IMG/VR virus record: IMGVR_UViG_3300045988_065224
Coordinates: 1 to 55,492 of that record
Length of the DNA stretch: 55,492 nt
From: a virus
Reading direction: 5' to 3' (one strand)
Position 1 is the stretch's first letter, and each line of letters begins with the position of its first letter. Under the pieces are notes generated by a model. That model worked only from the letters and a program-made list of their open reading frames with translations, ran no database searches and had not been told where the DNA came from. Below, piece after piece: positions 1,755 to 10,427 of this stretch. A program made the translations under genes and the position numbers.

Positions 1755-1784
1755 TTTCATTATAGGCTATGTATTTTCTGCGAA
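1755..1784 (-). promoter_or_regulatory. conserved promoter-like motif, copy 1
   Basis: Minus strand TTCGCAGAAAATACATAGCCTATAATGAAA, with GCAG-11 nt-2 nt-TATAAT spacing. Fills the gap between the stop of 1785..1976 and the RBS of 1421..1726. Confidence 0.55.
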
Positions 1785-1976
1785 CTATCTACCATAATGT
1801 AGATCGCCATTGCTATCCTCATATTCAATCCAGTGATCCATCATGTCCGGACCTTCTTGTAACTCTCTACCAGTAGGAGTACAGAATTCCTCGTTCCCAT
1901 TAGATGTTTCGAACGCCTTTTGGAAAATACCATTTCTATCGATTTCAACAAAACGTGGATATGTTACTTCGCTCAT
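1785..1976 (-). CDS. hypothetical protein (63 aa)
   Basis: ORF-track ORF with GTGAGGTAAAAAT before the ATG. Confidence 0.6.
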   Translation of the reverse strand: MSEVTYPRFVEIDRNGIFQKAFETSNGNEEFCTPTGRELQEGPDMMDHWIEYEDSNGDLHYGR

Positions 1977-2001
1977 ATTTTTACCTCACTATTTTATCTA
2001 A

Positions 2002-2265
2002 TTACAATCCTTCAGTACACAAAGCTTCGCCAGAAAATAATGGAACCTCTGGTAGATTTTTCTTCGTACGAATATCGTTGATCAGTCTATAAATTTCATT
2101 GACCTTATATTTACAGAACTTCTTAACACCGGCTTTCTCTAAAGTCATAGCGTAAGAATATCTCGGACGATGAAATTCGTCATGGTATAATTCTTTTGAA
2201 TATACTGCAGCAGCTTTAGCAAGAGCCTCTACATATTTCTTAGGATTGTATGGAAATTTATTCAT
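2002..2265 (-). CDS. hypothetical protein (87 aa)
   Basis: ORF-track ORF. Its start overlaps the stop of the small upstream ORF. Confidence 0.6.
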   Translation of the reverse strand: MNKFPYNPKKYVEALAKAAAVYSKELYHDEFHRPRYSYAMTLEKAGVKKFCKYKVNEIYRLINDIRTKKNLPEVPLFSGEALCTEGL

Positions 2266-2404
2266 CAGCGTCGTCCCTTCTTAAATGAATTAGATAATGC
2301 GTGTTTGGAATTTCAATTTCCAATTCCTTCTCGCAATATTTGAATTGCTCTGCTAAGTGCATCATGTCATCATCCGACATTGTGATATGAATATGGTGTT
2401 TCAT
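2258..2404 (-). CDS. hypothetical small protein (48 aa)
   Basis: The ATG overlaps the stop of 2404..2907 (TAATG) and the stop overlaps the start of 2002..2265. Translates to MKHHIHITMSDDDMMHLAEQFKYCEKELEIEIPNTHYLIHLRRDDADE. Below the ORF-track cutoff. Confidence 0.45.
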   Translation of the reverse strand: MKHHIHITMSDDDMMHLAEQFKYCEKELEIEIPNTHYLIHLRRDDADE

Positions 2405-2907
2405 TACTTGAGATAATCCTTTCCCATAATTTTTCTGATTTGCTCCAATGTAGATTCTGTGTTGACATAATATCTATCATAAATTGTATCTACTATGTCG
2501 AAAAAATATAGAAGTCGGTCTTTGTCCATATCAATATAGTTTGCATATGGAGTGAACGGTATATTTTCTCCTATGATTGATAGTTTGTCATCATAGTAAA
2601 ATCCCTCCGCCAAACTAACGATAAGCTCATCTACCAAACATCTAGTTATTTTCCACATGTATAACTCACTGTCAAGTTTACCAACTTTATCGGATACCAT
2701 AAGTAATCCAAAGATATACTTTTTGTACTCCTCATCAAATTTAACCCTCGTCCAGCTTTTAATAAGACGATCAATATACCAATCCTCTATACAAAATATC
2801 TCTTGTAATGGAAGATTACGCAAGTTACCAACAACCGCGTCGTAAAAATCGTCCCTAGACAATATGAGGGTATATTGTCCCGTATGCCTCATCTGTTCAG
2901 CCCTCAC
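2404..2907 (-). CDS. hypothetical protein; tandem paralog of 2897..3403
   Basis: ORF-track ORF. Shares LPLxxxxxI...W(T)...EEYKxY...LYxxxIxR...YY pattern with its neighbour. The start could instead be the ATG at 2892. Confidence 0.65.
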   Translation of the reverse strand: MRAEQMRHTGQYTLILSRDDFYDAVVGNLRNLPLQEIFCIEDWYIDRLIKSWTRVKFDEEYKKYIFGLLMVSDKVGKLDSELYMWKITRCLVDELIVSLAEGFYYDDKLSIIGENIPFTPYANYIDMDKDRLLYFFDIVDTIYDRYYVNTESTLEQIRKIMGKDYLK

Positions 2908-3403
2908 TGTTTGTGTTATTGTCCAACACTTTTTGGTAGTATTTGTTGAACTCTTGTTTGAGTTCTTGTGCGCTCATATATGCTCGGCGATTATCAGGAT
3001 TATCCTCGATTTTATCGCCGGTTTGCTGAATTAGTTCGTAAAGCAATTGGTAGTTTTCGTAGTCAATATCTGCAGAACCAAATACTGTGTTATAATATTT
3101 GGTTTCCAGCAGTGCAATCATCATGTTTCCGATAATCTTGCGAGCGATACGAAAGTAATATAAATCCATATCTAAAATTTGCATGTCTGACGGAATAGTC
3201 ATAATGAACTGGAAGTACTGTTTGTACTCCTCATTAGCAGGCACAAACCCATTAGCATCGGGTTCGGTCCATGCGGAAATGTATTTGTCAAGTTCAGCCT
3301 GCGGAATAAGCAGAAAATCATCTAATGGCATTGCTCGTACCATATCAATGACCGTCTGTTTGAATTCTCCAGACGTCTTAACAATCGGTCTGTTGTGCGT
3401 CAT
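2897..3403 (-). CDS. hypothetical protein; tandem paralog of 2404..2907
   Basis: ORF-track ORF with AAAGGAGGTAAACA before the ATG. Confidence 0.65.
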   Translation of the reverse strand: MTHNRPIVKTSGEFKQTVIDMVRAMPLDDFLLIPQAELDKYISAWTEPDANGFVPANEEYKQYFQFIMTIPSDMQILDMDLYYFRIARKIIGNMMIALLETKYYNTVFGSADIDYENYQLLYELIQQTGDKIEDNPDNRRAYMSAQELKQEFNKYYQKVLDNNTNSEG

Positions 3404-3415
3404 TGTTTACCTCCT

Positions 3416-3640
3416 TTATAAATTTTCATAAATACTTACCATAATAAATAAGTAAATAAATAGAACGAATAGCATTAAACATGCTGCTATTAAGCATCCT
3501 AGAAAGCCCATAGTAATTGTCAAATGAATAAGAAGTTCCAAGCAGGATAACTCGATAGCTATAAAAATAAATGTTAGGGCGATCATCAAAAGTAAATCTG
3601 ACAAATTGTAATCAATTAATTCGACAAGCTTCTCTTTCAT
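3416..3640 (-). CDS. small multi-pass membrane protein (74 aa)
   Basis: Three hydrophobic stretches (LLLMIALTFIFIAI, MGFLGCLIAACLMLFVLFIYLFIMV). AAGGGGGTAGACG before the ATG. Confidence 0.6.
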   Translation of the reverse strand: MKEKLVELIDYNLSDLLLMIALTFIFIAIELSCLELLIHLTITMGFLGCLIAACLMLFVLFIYLFIMVSIYENL

Positions 3641-3983
3641 CGTCTACCCCCTTGTGTAAAAATTCTCGAAGAATCTTTTTGAGCATATCCATCTTAGAAT
3701 TCAATTCATCATTACCATAGCAATATAATGTAGTGAAATATAGATTTGTCTTGTCATCAAAAACAATAGGATCAATATCGATAATAAGGAAAGTATCCGG
3801 ATACTCATCAACAGCCTCTAGAAAATATTTTGTTTCCAGAAGTTCGACATTATTCCTAATAGTTCGATATCTTTCGATTGAATCTTTGATGATATTAAGA
3901 TTAGATGTCTCGATTCTTAAAATAAAAGCATTTTCGTCATTTGGACTTAGTTGTCCATTAACATTATAAATTGGTTCTCCCAT
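3612..3983 (-). CDS. hypothetical protein; member of a tandem paralog trio
   Basis: ORF 3612..4004 trimmed to ATG 3983 (MGEPIYNV) behind TAAGGAGGAACCATAAA. Confidence 0.6.
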   Translation of the reverse strand: MGEPIYNVNGQLSPNDENAFILRIETSNLNIIKDSIERYRTIRNNVELLETKYFLEAVDEYPDTFLIIDIDPIVFDDKTNLYFTTLYCYGNDELNSKMDMLKKILREFLHKGVDDEREACRIN

Positions 3984-3984
3984 T

Positions 3985-9394: not shown

Positions 9395-9429
9395 TTTTCA
9401 TTATAGCATATGTAATTTCTGCGAAATTT
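9395..9429 (-). promoter_or_regulatory. conserved promoter-like motif, copy 6; drives the tRNA-like RNA
   Basis: Minus strand AAATTTCGCAGAAATTACATATGCTATAATGAAAA. The first G of the tRNA-like RNA is about 6 nt after TATAAT. Confidence 0.6.
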
Positions 9430-9453
9430 AAAAAAAAGAAGACAAAGTCTTCT
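9430..9453 (-). terminator. rho-independent terminator after 9467..9856
   Basis: Minus strand AGAAGAC-TTT-GTCTTCT followed by TTTTTTT. Confidence 0.6.
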
Positions 9454-9466
9454 TGATACAATCTAT

Positions 9467-9856
9467 TTAATCATTAGTTATTTCCTTGTAGCTAAGCATA
9501 GCTCTGGCAATATCTTGATGTTTACAATAGAAATGTAGCATAAAGTCTTTGTCATAAATTATTTTATTAACCGATGTAGCCATAATACTATAATAATTAC
9601 ATGCTGATTCCAATTCTGTAACATTAACAGTAAACATTTGTTCTTCTTCATTCCAGAATCCTGCGATGATACGTTTGAATATGTCGAATGCCCTATTGAA
9701 GTTTCCTCTATTAAAAGCATCTGCGGATATATAATCCAATGCCTCTTTAAACATAACTTCCATATAGTTATTACGAACACCCCAAACATACCAGCGGTAT
9801 CCTAGGTTATACAAATTTTTAATTTGTTCATCATTAGTTTCGTGTAATTTAGTCAT
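9467..9856 (-). CDS. hypothetical protein (129 aa)
   Basis: ORF-track ORF with AAAGGAGGGTCAATATT before the ATG. Downstream of promoter-motif copy 7. Confidence 0.65.
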   Translation of the reverse strand: MTKLHETNDEQIKNLYNLGYRWYVWGVRNNYMEVMFKEALDYISADAFNRGNFNRAFDIFKRIIAGFWNEEEQMFTVNVTELESACNYYSIMATSVNKIIYDKDFMLHFYCKHQDIARAMLSYKEITND

Positions 9857-9879
9857 AATATTGACCCTCCTTTAGTTTT

Positions 9880-9910
9880 CTTTCATTATGAGGAATGTAA
9901 AAACTACGAA
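9880..9910 (-). promoter_or_regulatory. conserved promoter-like motif, copy 7 (variant GTAG / CATAAT)
   Basis: Minus strand TTCGTAGTTTTTACATTCCTCATAATGAAAG, directly after terminator 9911..9935. Confidence 0.5.
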
Positions 9911-9935
9911 AAAAAAGAAGGGATATGTAATCCCT
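9911..9935 (-). terminator. rho-independent terminator after 9941..10366
   Basis: Minus strand AGGGAT-TACAT-ATCCCT followed by TCTTTTTTTT. Confidence 0.6.
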
Positions 9936-9940
9936 CAGTG

Positions 9941-10366
9941 TTATTGTAATGTTAGAAAGAATCTAATAATTTCCTCGGTTTCAGACTCCATTTCTTTTTG
10001 TCTGTTGCTAATTCTATTTATTAAGTTCTTAACTTCTTCATCTTCAATATCGCTGATTTTTACAAATCCCAACTTTTTGTCATTTAAAATATTTTCCAAC
10101 ATATCGTATGTTTTACGAGCTAAAGCAGATCTAATATAAAGTTCTTTTGCATCTATGGATTCTAAAATAGCTTTTAATTCGTTCTCCAATCTTTTGAGTA
10201 GATTTTCGTAGTATTCCACAATATACATATTGGCGTTTGAATTAAACAATGTGTAGTCTTGTCCGAGACTAATCATTTTACTCATTTCATTGTCTTCCAA
10301 ATATAATGCTAATTTGATCATAGCGATTTGATTCATATTAACTGCAAATGTTTGTTCGTGTGACAT
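9941..10366 (-). CDS. hypothetical protein (141 aa)
   Basis: ORF-track ORF with TAGGAGGACATCACT before the ATG. Downstream of promoter-motif copy 8. Confidence 0.65.
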   Translation of the reverse strand: MSHEQTFAVNMNQIAMIKLALYLEDNEMSKMISLGQDYTLFNSNANMYIVEYYENLLKRLENELKAILESIDAKELYIRSALARKTYDMLENILNDKKLGFVKISDIEDEEVKNLINRISNRQKEMESETEEIIRFFLTLQ

Positions 10367-10392
10367 AGTGATGTCCTCCTATAATTAAAATT

Positions 10393-10427
10393 CTTTTCAT
10401 TATAGGATATGTAAAATATGCGAATTT
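10393..10427 (-). promoter_or_regulatory. conserved promoter-like motif, copy 8 (variant GCAT)
   Basis: Minus strand AAATTCGCATATTTTACATATCCTATAATGAAAAG. A partial upstream half-copy (GAATTTCCAAAATT) lies at about 10451..10466. Confidence 0.55.

Follow-up and report, generated by a model that had tools for sequence, protein, structure and literature searches.

Nine rigidly spaced sites in a streptococcal-type phage genome are probable promoters of its own two-barrel RNA polymerase

Which polymerase reads a repeated motif that contains a consensus TATAAT hexamer but places its conserved upstream block too close for a −35 element? The question is raised by the viral DNA record IMGVR_UViG_3300045988_065224, of which we analyzed positions 1-55,492 on one strand (the window). 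It is the circular genome, about 55.4 kb long, of a streptococcal-type siphophage and is kin to Caudovirus D_HF5_2C and Lactococcus phage 1706. The original prediction had described ten copies of the motif and attributed them to a phage-specific promoter class, read either by an 877-residue phage polymerase candidate or by a modified host RNA polymerase. We found no published description of such promoters.

The motif is rigid, about 30 bases long and present in nine true copies, all on the minus strand. Its spacing had been described as identical throughout and is constant in nine of nine copies: CGCAG (with the variants CGCAA, CGTAG and CGCAT), 13 nt, and (T/C)ATAAT, the hexamer being TATAAT in six copies and CATAAT in three. 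Leave-one-out PWM scores of the nine members range from 21.5 to 38.5; the best scores over either strand of 40 first-order Markov shuffles had a mean of 11.6 (sd 2.5) and a maximum of 17.7. Matches scoring at least 12 numbered nine on the minus strand and one on the plus strand, the latter at noise level within the tape-measure gene. In agreement with the gene orientation and intergenic location claimed originally, all nine copies are on the coding strand, and where a copy is not wholly intergenic it covers no more than the final codons of the ORF before it. The motif was not found in the 25 kb late region of the window.

The supposed tenth copy, which had been placed at 46322, is not a member. 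The site at 46329-46351 (minus strand) has a PWM score of -4.3, GCAG and TATAAT being all that it has in common with the motif. As TTTACG, 18 nt and TGCTATAAT, it looks like an ordinary host-type site, and it stands 3' of a hairpin and T-run.

Eight of the copies fall in the small-gene region and have GAAA after the hexamer. The first of this early region, at 10391-10428 (hexamer 10404-10399, predicted start G 10398, leave-one-out score 36.4), reads CAAATTCGCATATTTTACATATCC TATAAT GAAAAGAA and is followed by the gene at 9941-10366. The copy at 9877-9914 (hexamer 9890-9885, predicted start 9884, score 24.7) reads TTCGTAG...CATAAT GAAAG and precedes the gene at 9467-9856, and the copy at 9392-9429 (hexamer 9405-9400, predicted start G 9399, score 38.5) has a tRNA-like RNA downstream. 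At 8720-8757 (hexamer 8733-8728, predicted start 8727, score 32.8) the sequence is ATCGCAA...CATAAT GAAAGGAGGG, with AGGAGG beginning 3 nt past the hexamer, its GGAGG core at the fifth nucleotide, and the gene at 8341-8709 downstream. The copies at 8270-8307 (hexamer 8283-8278, predicted start 8277, score 30.0) and 7138-7175 (hexamer 7151-7146, predicted start 7145, score 30.7) belong to the genes at 8075-8251 and 6931-7113, respectively. Two copies overlap the upstream ORF: that at 4981-5018 (hexamer 4994-4989, predicted start 4988, score 34.1) covers the last codons of ORF 4990-5364 and is followed by GAAAGGAAGG and the gene at 4680-4970, and that at 1751-1788 (hexamer 1764-1759, predicted start 1758, score 34.8) covers the stop codon of ORF 1785-1976, with the gene at 1421-1726 downstream. 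The early small genes are ORFans that gave no family matches in Pfam scans.

Terminator-like hairpins with T-runs on the minus strand adjoin the promoter copies at 9877-9914, 9392-9429 and 8270-8307 (hairpins at 9918-9936, 9436-9454 and 8318-8332, respectively), and a further one at 10474-10492 lies 46 nt 5' of the copy at 10391-10428. The statement that most copies directly follow a hairpin and T-run was too strong, as this holds for four of nine, and AGGAGG occurs 3-18 nt past the hexamer rather than 15-35 nt downstream. Thus, while copy number (at nine), strand and spacing stand from the original observation, the tenth copy, the hairpin frequency and the distance to the ribosome-binding site do not. 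The proposed division of the region into short terminated units agrees with an enrichment of terminator-like hairpins (15 observed, 5.4 expected). Such frequent intrinsic terminators are of the kind that stops host polymerase, which we counted against reading by a phage enzyme.

The ninth copy, at 42214-42251 (minus strand, hexamer 42227-42222, predicted start A 42221), has the lowest leave-one-out score (21.5), with 19.3 still reached under a model built without it. It reads CTTCGCAGGATTTACATGGCA CATAAT AGAGAGG, with AGAG instead of GAAA after the hexamer, and sits 3' of the replicase gene. The operon behind it encodes a ssDNA-binding protein, ORF 40416-41600, a DUF2800-like ORF and the RNA polymerase. 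ORF 40416-41600 has no family match; by position, it is homologous to the DNA helicase genes in 1706 and Mudcat, and the DUF2800-like ORF is, again by position, an exonuclease homologue. The place of the ninth copy is also occupied in D_HF5_2C, 1706, Mudcat, RavenPuff, FP_oengus, ReqiPoco6 and L130.

The polymerase candidate is encoded by ORF 36961-39594 (minus strand, 877 residues). Pfam matches comprise RdRP (4.3e-5) and, at the C-terminal end, Sigma70_r4_2 (37.7 bits) and HTH_23 at residues 853-876; an IclR-type HTH is found at residues 91-112. The catalytic motif GADFDGD occupies residues 498-504, and its DFDGD loop is invariant across 66 diverse homologues; conservation along the family extends to both HTH regions. 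Foldseek searches with an AF2 model of the protein (pLDDT 85) matched QDE-1 (1.4e-10) and, as third-best, the P74-26 gp62 non-virion RNA polymerase (8f5m, 1.3e-8). The protein, already a polymerase candidate in the original prediction, is a single-chain two-barrel RNA polymerase of the YonO/QDE-1 type that carries an HTH domain at either end, and we propose it as the reader of the motif. A Pfam scan of 30 other window proteins, which partly covered the roughly 40 small ORFs, revealed no second polymerase and no sigma factor, nor any MotA-, AsiA- or sigma-like protein; the remaining small ORFs may include a small sigma factor or activator of the phage. The homologous ORF75 of 1706 is annotated as 'structural protein', the sole basis for a virion association of the polymerase; the annotation in ReqiPoco6 was copied from it by similarity.

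Homologues of the polymerase occur in 250 INPHARED phage records (tblastn), and the gene is reported to be the signature of a phage supercluster of Actinobacteria plus Firmicutes (bioRxiv 10.1101/842583). Every polymerase-encoding phage we examined, from Lactococcus, Faecalibacterium, Arthrobacter, Streptomyces, Gordonia and Rhodococcus hosts, carries the motif, always spaced as CGC, 15 nt, hexamer, G, in genomes whose G+C content ranges from 34% to 60%. We scanned seven of these genomes systematically, with 9 copies in the window, 9 in D_HF5_2C, 11 in Lactococcus 1706, 7 in Arthrobacter Mudcat, 6 in Streptomyces RavenPuff, 15 in Faecalibacterium FP_oengus and 7 in Gordonia Chikenjars; scores were far above those of shuffles. 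Rhodococcus ReqiPoco6 also has the motif, as does a metagenomic lineage with a polymerase 48% identical. Because the motif thus travels with the polymerase, at fixed spacing, in phages of two host phyla, we consider it likely that the nine sites are cognate promoters of ORF 36961-39594, as one branch of the original prediction had it.

The same comparison bears on whether the sites are promoters at all. Intergenic elements of 30 bp that recur in a genome can serve as operators, as the 'stoperators' of Cluster A actinophages do (PMC5559632), and the motif might represent a repressor operator array, a repeat used in replication or partition, or what is left of a small mobile repeat. We regard this as highly improbable: orientation is strict, with 64 of 64 sites in the seven genomes on the coding strand, and each site is closely followed by a ribosome-binding site or an RNA gene, with a terminator often closely preceding it. 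They further combine an AT-rich box with a conserved, transcribed-looking leader (GAGACCCCTAYGAAAGGA in actinophages), and they lack flanking repeats and target duplications.

RNA features near the hexamer indicate where transcription may start. The tRNA-like RNA at 9317-9399 (minus strand), behind the copy at 9392-9429, has an acceptor-like stem from 1-4 nt past the hexamer and an oversized anticodon arm, and its cloverleaf fold pairs G9399, the nucleotide adjoining the hexamer. It is no more than tRNA-like: it scores 21.9 bits against the Rfam tRNA model (threshold 29), and ARAGORN detected no tRNA. We counted it against our reading that the tRNA-like RNAs of this lineage are degenerate and could come from processing of longer transcripts. 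The tRNA of FP_oengus, which passes the Rfam threshold (47.9 bits), starts 3 nt past the hexamer. Family variants of the tRNA-like RNA show compensatory changes: metagenomic relatives have TATAAT-G-[AAGAAGA ... TCTTCTT]-T-run, with a compensatory stem variant AAGAATA/TATTCTT, and between the window and D_HF5_2C the first acceptor pair shows an A:T to G:C exchange. Directly behind the ninth copy, a leader hairpin followed by a U-run (42173-42221, minus strand, -17.9 kcal/mol, z -1.8) begins at the predicted +1 and pairs the nucleotide directly 3' of the hexamer; this element is an attenuator or an RNA of about 49 nt. Comparable leader hairpins with T-runs are present in 1706, FP_oengus and RavenPuff. 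Ribosome-binding sites are equally near, with GGAGG 4-7 nt past the hexamer in 16 distinct instances; in six copies of 1706, TATAGT is directly followed by AGAAAGAAGGT, 8-9 nt and ATG.

Since these features start 1-5 nt 3' of the hexamer, the start site is probably the conserved G that adjoins it, in which case TATAAT would span -6 to -1 and not act as a sigma-type -10. The role as a -10, with starts 5-9 nt downstream, that had been assigned to the hexamer is therefore improbable, also in view of the CTTTAT of FP_oengus; judged by that distance, the promoter hypothesis would be rejected in error.

That the upstream block does not fit the spacing of a -35 was borne out. In the nine copies, the best TTGACA match at a spacer of 16-18 nt covers one to four of six positions (median 2), and an extended -10 (TGn) is present in two of nine. 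Sigma-70-type sites occur in the early region at chance level (64 observed, 59.5 expected). Across the scanned genomes, TATAAT or TATAGT, a perfect or near-perfect sigma-A -10, is found in five of seven, and is invariant as TATAGT in 11 of 11 copies of 1706, so that host holoenzyme could bind or use the sites too. In turn, two of six RavenPuff copies are without the critical A (position 2) or T (position 6), with TGTAAT and TATAAC as hexamers, and FP_oengus has CTTTAT, with no sigma-compatible copy among 15; as a sequence, CTTTAT could not be read by a sigma factor as a -10 element.

The window hexamers, all TATAAT or CATAAT, together with an upstream block about 3 nt too near for a -35, at the place of a MotA box, would suit a host sigma-A that uses the hexamer as -10 while a phage DNA-binding factor at CGCAG/TTACA replaces the -35 contact, by sigma appropriation or class II-type activation. 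Phage T4 middle promoters have this design, with a consensus -10-like hexamer and a conserved box about 12-14 bp upstream. They depend on host sigma-70 together with MotA and AsiA, and their transcripts begin about 7 nt past the -10. The HTH domains of the 877-residue protein could in principle play such a factor. Yet we find this mechanism unlikely, since the hexamer degenerates beyond sigma reading in one lineage, the RNA features are too near for a start 6-9 nt downstream, and MotA- and AsiA-type factors are absent among the 30 proteins scanned. An activator common to the supercluster other than the polymerase is not evident either, because the early small genes are ORFans. Of the two readers considered originally, the modified host polymerase is the weaker.

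Also unlikely in our estimate is dual use in the TATAAT lineages, with weak firing by host sigma-A right after infection and use of the same sites by the phage polymerase later. It would account for the retention of TATAAT/TATAGT in phages whose hosts are Streptococcus-like, Lactococcus, Arthrobacter or Gordonia. Hexamers that are not sigma-like prevail in FP_oengus alone, a temperate phage (integrase) in which leaky host transcription would be harmful. Dual use would also solve the bootstrap problem if the virion carries no polymerase. However, sigma-A promoters are very weak when they consist of a -10 with neither -35 nor TGn, and a start 7 nt downstream would leave the tRNA-like RNA and several ribosome-binding sites truncated. 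Moreover, the bootstrap could instead come from the host-type site at 46329-46351, which lies upstream of the string of genes from replicase to polymerase.

We therefore favor promoters of the phage's own polymerase, retaining from the original interpretation the phage promoter class, the 877-residue reader and the short terminated units, and discarding the sigma-like -10 and the count of ten. With the G after the hexamer as +1, block I (tCGCAG) would lie at about -24 to -20, block II (TTACA) at -16 to -12 and TATAAT, as an AT-rich melting box, at -6 to -1, with GAAA as the initially transcribed sequence. The two terminal HTH domains of the polymerase, supplied by the virion or synthesized after infection, may contact blocks I and II in double-stranded DNA, whereupon the hexamer would melt and RNA synthesis begin from G. 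Eight promoters with interleaved hairpin/U-run terminators would yield the ORFan small genes and the tRNA-like RNA as short units, and the ninth, with its immediate terminator-like leader hairpin, would head the operon whose last gene encodes the polymerase itself.

Among known systems, injected virion RNA polymerases transcribe early genes in N4 and crAss-like phages (cited in PMC10770324), a strategy that may match the motif's location on the ORFan early region, if 1706 ORF75 is truly in the virion. However, N4 has a T7-like enzyme that recognizes promoters in hairpin form, and crAss gp66 is much larger than the window polymerase, whose virion delivery is putative.

YonO of the Bacillus prophage SPbeta and the window enzyme are alike in being two-barrel DNA-dependent RNA polymerases of a single chain, encoded by Firmicutes phages, and the 1706 protein has been listed among five YonO-like families (PMC2919709), but similarity between YonO and the window polymerase is limited to the DxDGD loop (BLASTP E 0.049). 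YonO, the sole characterised relative, transcribes late genes from one promoter of undefined sequence (PMC5467207); since the window motif does not occur in the late region, we counted this against our explanation. The yonN-yonK region is without the motif, the 50 kb SPbeta stretch around it reaching a PWM score of 11.9 at best, which is noise.

T7-type class II/III promoters share the layout of a continuous motif of about 23-30 bp with an upstream recognition part, a TATA-like box ending at -1, a G start and a conserved initially transcribed sequence, as well as many copies before short units with hairpin terminators. Their reader, though, is a right-hand single-subunit polymerase of unrelated fold, and the likeness of the motifs stops at TATA-G.

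The Thermus phages P23-45 and P74-26 also encode small two-barrel polymerases, a tape-measure-fused virion RNAP and the non-virion gp64/gp62, each, in P23-45, with a promoter motif of its own (PMC10770324). Their motifs, one AT-rich and one GC-rich, are unrelated in sequence to that of the window, and the term HTH is absent from the text of that study, whereas the window polymerase has an HTH at both ends. The Thermus motifs lie upstream of experimentally mapped starts, compared with the predicted starts of the window, and, like the window motif, they are confined to relatives with the enzyme (PMC10770324).

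The motif occurs in nine copies on the minus strand of the window, with the consensus tTCGCAG-aaaTTACATAtcC-TATAAT-GAAAg and a distance of 13 nt between CGCAG and the hexamer in all nine. Every copy is intergenic or overlaps no more than the final codons of the ORF before it, and leave-one-out scores against a position weight matrix (PWM) range from 21.5 to 38.5, compared to best scores averaging 11.6 (sd 2.5, highest 17.7) in Markov shuffles of the window. The original prediction of a rigidly spaced element is thus confirmed for nine of the ten copies it listed. The tenth, at 46322, does not belong to the family (score −4.3); it reads as an ordinary host-type site, TTTACG-18 nt-TGCTATAAT, after a terminator. 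The gap in which it lies, upstream of the replicase gene (46156-46362, minus strand, 207 nt), is AT-rich and holds further TG-TATATA-like sites, which are candidates for one or more host-type promoters, or for an origin region, serving the string of genes from replication to polymerase.

All sizeable ORFs of the window lie on the minus strand. Since its terminal 55 nt (1-55 and 55438-55492) are identical, the window is a circular assembly with overlap and a true length of ~55,437 bp (~55.4 kb). Among cultured phages the closest to it is Caudovirus D_HF5_2C, which comes from human saliva and reaches 80-86% nucleotide identity in places; the relationship to Lactococcus phage 1706 is more remote. 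Along the minus strand, the gene order begins with lysis and the start of packaging, continues with head and then tail genes down to ~11.4 kb and with ~40 small ORFan genes from 10.4 kb down to 0.3 kb and on across the junction, and is completed by replication genes, a 1292-aa replicase (42277-46155), a ssDNA-binding protein (41590-42129), an ORF without family match (40416-41600) in the position of the helicase genes of 1706 and Arthrobacter phage Mudcat, a DUF2800-like ORF that is, by position, an exonuclease homologue, and, last, the 877-aa polymerase ORF (36961-39594). Eight motif copies fall into the small-gene, early region and the ninth lies at 42214-42251; there are none in the 25 kb late region, and inspection of all intergenic gaps of the window revealed no other class of motif preceding the late genes. 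Terminator-like hairpins are enriched in the early region (15 observed, 5.4 expected) and four of them adjoin motif copies.

Two further features of this layout concern the host and the genome ends. A lysin with an Amidase_5 domain and choline-binding repeats (46781-47686, minus strand) is encoded among the genes of the replication side, a long way from the holin-like genes at about 35-36 kb; because of these repeats, the host is probably a mitis-group Streptococcus. An unusually G+C-rich gap (36474-36618, minus strand) separates the polymerase operon from the first genes on the lysis/packaging side; it contains CCCCCATAGGGGG and GGGTCG...CGACCC-TTTTG hairpins. The linear records of 1706 and of actinophages start and end at the matching place, and the gap is probably a cos region plus terminator.

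The hexamers of all nine window copies have the A in position 2 and the T in position 6 of a −10 element (TAnnnT), as do those of D_HF5_2C, 1706, Mudcat and the Gordonia phage Chikenjars. None of the nine has a usable −35 element at 16-18 bp, the best matches to TTGACA covering 1-4 of six positions (median 2). The extended −10 (TGn) is present in only two of nine and the conserved upstream block is 14 bp away from the hexamer, which bears out the earlier remark that the element does not fit −35 spacing. Sigma-70-type sites occur in the early region at chance level (64 observed, 59.5 expected). We also considered a −35 role for TTTACA, paired with a later −10, and by inspection found no consistent hexamer after it.

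For a comparative view, we scanned seven genomes iteratively, each with its own PWM, as well as a partial genome region of Rhodococcus phage ReqiPoco6 and one metagenomic contig. In the per-genome scans all matches were on the coding strand and far above shuffles. Nine copies were found in D_HF5_2C (CGCAG..TTaCA.....TATAAT GAAa), 11 in Lactococcus phage 1706 (c(A/G)CAtgTTTTACAta..C TATAGT AGAAAG), seven in Mudcat (tCGCGtaAAtTACA.GGGC TATAAT), six in Streptomyces phage RavenPuff, which has 60% G+C (TCGCA.GtTTT.C.tGC.t TATAaT GAGACCCCTAC), 15 in Faecalibacterium phage FP_oengus (GACGCGAAAAa..CA...T. CTTTAT Gga) and seven in Chikenjars (cTCGCA.aaATTACACGtCC TATAAT GAGACCCcta). The motif also stands ahead of the nuclease-polymerase operon of ReqiPoco6 and occurs in a metagenomic lineage with a polymerase of 48% identity. 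An exact-pattern scan of IMG/VR yielded 448 instances on more than 119 stretches, mostly contigs of ~55-58 kb; CGC, the C of ACA, the hexamer and the next G are 94-99% conserved in these, with some positions biased by the search pattern.

The distance between CGC and the hexamer is constant in every genome examined, and motif and polymerase are inherited together in phages of six named host genera and of the probable streptococcal-type host of the window lineage, which together span two phyla. As the register is kept in hosts of two phyla despite a G+C content of the carriers ranging from 34% to 60%, the sequence comparison suggests that this ~30-bp element, for which host sigma factors would not account, is read by a conserved phage protein. 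The fusion of polymerase and HTH domains is the only conserved DNA-binding candidate that we found. A role of the motif other than that of a promoter is unlikely, given its strict orientation and its location ahead of ribosome-binding sites and RNA genes. In Mudcat, the AT-rich promoter core is unchanged at a genome G+C content of 45%, compared to 63.4% in its Arthrobacter host (PMC5513430), and the phages of this supercluster seem compositionally uncoupled from their hosts.

The hexamer varies between lineages. It is an invariant TATAGT in 1706; in RavenPuff, TAnnnT is present at the homologous position in four of six copies, the other two being without the A or T that sigma needs; in FP_oengus it is present in none of 15, and the CTTTAT found there is, judging by its bases, unreadable by sigma in any register. 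This variation agrees with a conserved phage protein as the reader. We disfavor the alternative that the host enzyme is redirected to these sites through sigma appropriation or activation, against which speak the hexamers of FP_oengus and RavenPuff, the constraints on the start site described below, and a lack of candidate factors among the proteins scanned. With Pfam, 30 other window proteins matched no sigma factor, MotA/AsiA or second polymerase, and the early proteins appear as ORFans; a factor of this kind could be encoded by one of ~40 further small ORFs. Dual use of the sites by host and phage enzymes is possible in lineages that keep TATAAT. FP_oengus is the sole examined relative with an integrase (146-1387 of its genome) and the sole one with a hexamer unlike a sigma −10; its CTTTAT may result from selection against leaky host transcription in lysogens.

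Several independent features start too near the hexamer for a sigma-type start, and we therefore predict the conserved G after the hexamer as +1. The acceptor stems of tRNAs and tRNA-like RNAs start 2-4 nt past the hexamer. The tRNA of FP_oengus (47.9 bits, above the Rfam threshold) begins 3 nt past it, and relatives from oral metagenomes read TATAAT-G-AAGAAGA...TCTTCTT-T-run, with the acceptor stem beginning at the second nucleotide and a compensatory variant, AAGAATA/TATTCTT. In the window, a tRNA-like RNA (9317-9399, minus strand) forms a cloverleaf whose closing stem takes in G9399, the nucleotide right after the hexamer; its first acceptor pair changes from A:T to G:C in D_HF5_2C. A terminator immediately upstream of its promoter (9392-9429) makes read-through an unlikely source of this RNA. 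Further, the leader after copy 9 (42173-42221, minus strand) consists of a hairpin from the predicted +1 followed by a U-run, GGAGG starts 4-7 nt past the hexamer in 16 distinct instances, and six copies in 1706 read TATAGT-AGAAAGAAGGT-(8-9 nt)-ATG. Judged indirectly from the positions of these RNA features, the start is probably not the sigma-type one 6-9 nt past the hexamer. We also rejected a sigma −10 placed so as to start at the G, the stretch from −12 to −7 being a variable spacer (TATCC, CGGGC, CCGGC). With +1 at the G, TATAAT would occupy −6 to −1, TTACA −16 to −12 and CGCAG −24 to −20.

Sequences beyond the hexamer are conserved in some lineages. In RavenPuff and Chikenjars the conserved block runs on as GAGACCCCTA(C/T)GAAAGGA, a shared 5' leader ending in the ribosome-binding site, and one Chikenjars gene begins just 9 nt past the hexamer (TATAAT-GAGACCCCT-ATG).

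A tRNA-like gene follows one early promoter in all four genomes of phages with Firmicutes hosts that we checked: the window, D_HF5_2C (~27876-27960), 1706 (~31095-31170) and FP_oengus (2936-3005). The leader measures 1-3 nt in three of them and ~22 nt in 1706. The RNA has an abnormal anticodon arm, its acceptor 3' strand continues straight into the U-run without CCA, and oral metagenome relatives contain several distinct sequence types. The window RNA falls short of a tRNA, with 21.9 bits against a threshold of 29, a negative ARAGORN result and an oversized anticodon arm; at the gathering threshold, Rfam had no matches in the window and four metagenomic loci. Only the FP_oengus version exceeds the Rfam tRNA threshold, and ARAGORN reports its anticodon as undefined. 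For 13 tRNA-like sequences, RNAalifold missed the acceptor stem due to misaligned 3' ends, so that pairs were counted by script. The RNA could be a decoy, primer or regulator.

The hairpin and T-run at the predicted +1 of the polymerase-operon promoter recur, despite sequence divergence, in 1706 (~46490-46535), FP_oengus (~27715-27760) and RavenPuff (~21610-21650). This leader is purine-rich (AGAGAGG or GAGGGAG) and may be an attenuator of polymerase dosage or timing, or else yield a ~49-nt RNA.

The 877-aa ORF carries GADFDGD at residues 498-504. In 66 homologues with 39-67% identity to the window protein, the loop S497-G-A-D-x-D-G-D504 is invariant and the F at least 90% conserved. A Pfam RdRP match is sub-threshold (4.3e-5); above threshold are a C-terminal HTH (Sigma70_r4_2, 37.7 bits; HTH_23, 42.7 bits) and, on the N-terminal side, an IclR-type HTH (residues 91-112). 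A sequence search against PDB had no match, and only the fold search, with an AlphaFold2 model (pLDDT 85, pTM 0.77), was productive: the top PDB matches were Neurospora QDE-1 (1.4e-10), gp62 of Thermus phage P74-26, a non-virion RNA polymerase (1.3e-8), and plant RDR2, followed more weakly by the large subunits of multisubunit polymerases; in BFVD, the P23-45 homologue was matched. From sequence and model, the window phage is thus predicted to encode its own DNA-dependent RNA polymerase. The family has at least 8000 members in protein databases (1877 clusters at 50% identity), occurs in 250 INPHARED phage records and is frequent in metagenomes from the human mouth and gut. Its 1706 member has already been placed among YonO-like families (PMC2919709), and the RdRP-like core, flanked on either side by HTH domains, has been described, without discussion of promoters, as a signature gene of a supercluster of phages of Actinobacteria and Firmicutes (10.1101/842583).

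Most likely, the HTH modules of the polymerase would bind both upstream blocks, upon which the AT-rich box would melt and synthesis would start from the G. Eight promoters, with interleaved terminators, would drive expression of the ORFan region and of the tRNA-like RNA. The ninth, with its immediate terminator-like leader, would head the operon whose last gene encodes the polymerase, which suggests that polymerase expression is autoregulated or attenuated. The first polymerase could come from the host-type site at 46329-46351 if the enzyme is not injected.

More tentatively, and with some doubt about so extended a proposal, we envisage the 877-aa protein as a self-sufficient, promoter-specific two-barrel polymerase with HTH domains in place of sigma, reading a ~30-bp duplex promoter. 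It would be packaged into the virion and injected, the early ORFan genes would be transcribed without a host factor, and the enzyme-promoter pair would be older than the split between Actinobacteria and Firmicutes hosts. If this reading is true, the pair would offer a minimal model of promoter recognition by two-barrel polymerases and a ready orthogonal transcription system for Gram-positive bacteria. ORF75 of 1706 was labelled 'structural protein' in the original record; the same label in ReqiPoco6 was copied from 1706 by similarity, and we discarded it as independent virion evidence.

The N-terminus of the polymerase family is disordered yet has a nearly invariant motif, H..G....SGRY.WGSG...YQR. 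A 207-aa protein encoded after the last late terminator and before the first promoter copy (10637-11260, minus strand) has an N-terminal DUF7211 motif (HHGVKGMKWGQR, 5.2e-10). Any relationship between these two motifs, such as a shared role in capsid targeting, is speculative. DUF7211 had no match in the real window polymerase sequence, and we discounted as evidence the E-value of 0.0019 obtained with a hand-built consensus.

How single-chain two-barrel polymerases of the YonO type find their promoters now becomes testable; for YonO, the promoter and the need for extra factors were left to be determined (PMC5467207). New here are a candidate promoter whose blocks are defined, whose spacing is fixed and for which a +1 is predicted, an enzyme with visible, predicted DNA-reading modules, and a natural mutational series over two phyla, in block I (CGCAG, CGCG, CACA) and in the hexamer (TATAAT, TATAGT, CTTTAT). 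The motif serves as an annotation marker for transcription units in these genomes and could seed an orthogonal expression system. We found no description of it, or of promoters for any polymerase of the family, in the Arthrobacter and Gordonia comparative papers, the supercluster preprint, or keyword and sequence-string searches, a search outside which most subscription-journal papers lie, so that an earlier description elsewhere is possible.

SPbeta YonO transcribes late genes from one promoter, whereas the window motif is absent from the late region; in SPbeta 50001-100000, which includes the yonN-yonK gap, the motif had no PWM match (best score 11.9, at noise level). The layout in the window resembles T7-type promoters in function, but differs from them in sequence and enzyme. 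Promoters specific for a phage polymerase are a known kind, and the two-barrel enzymes of P23-45 provide the direct precedent (PMC10770324).
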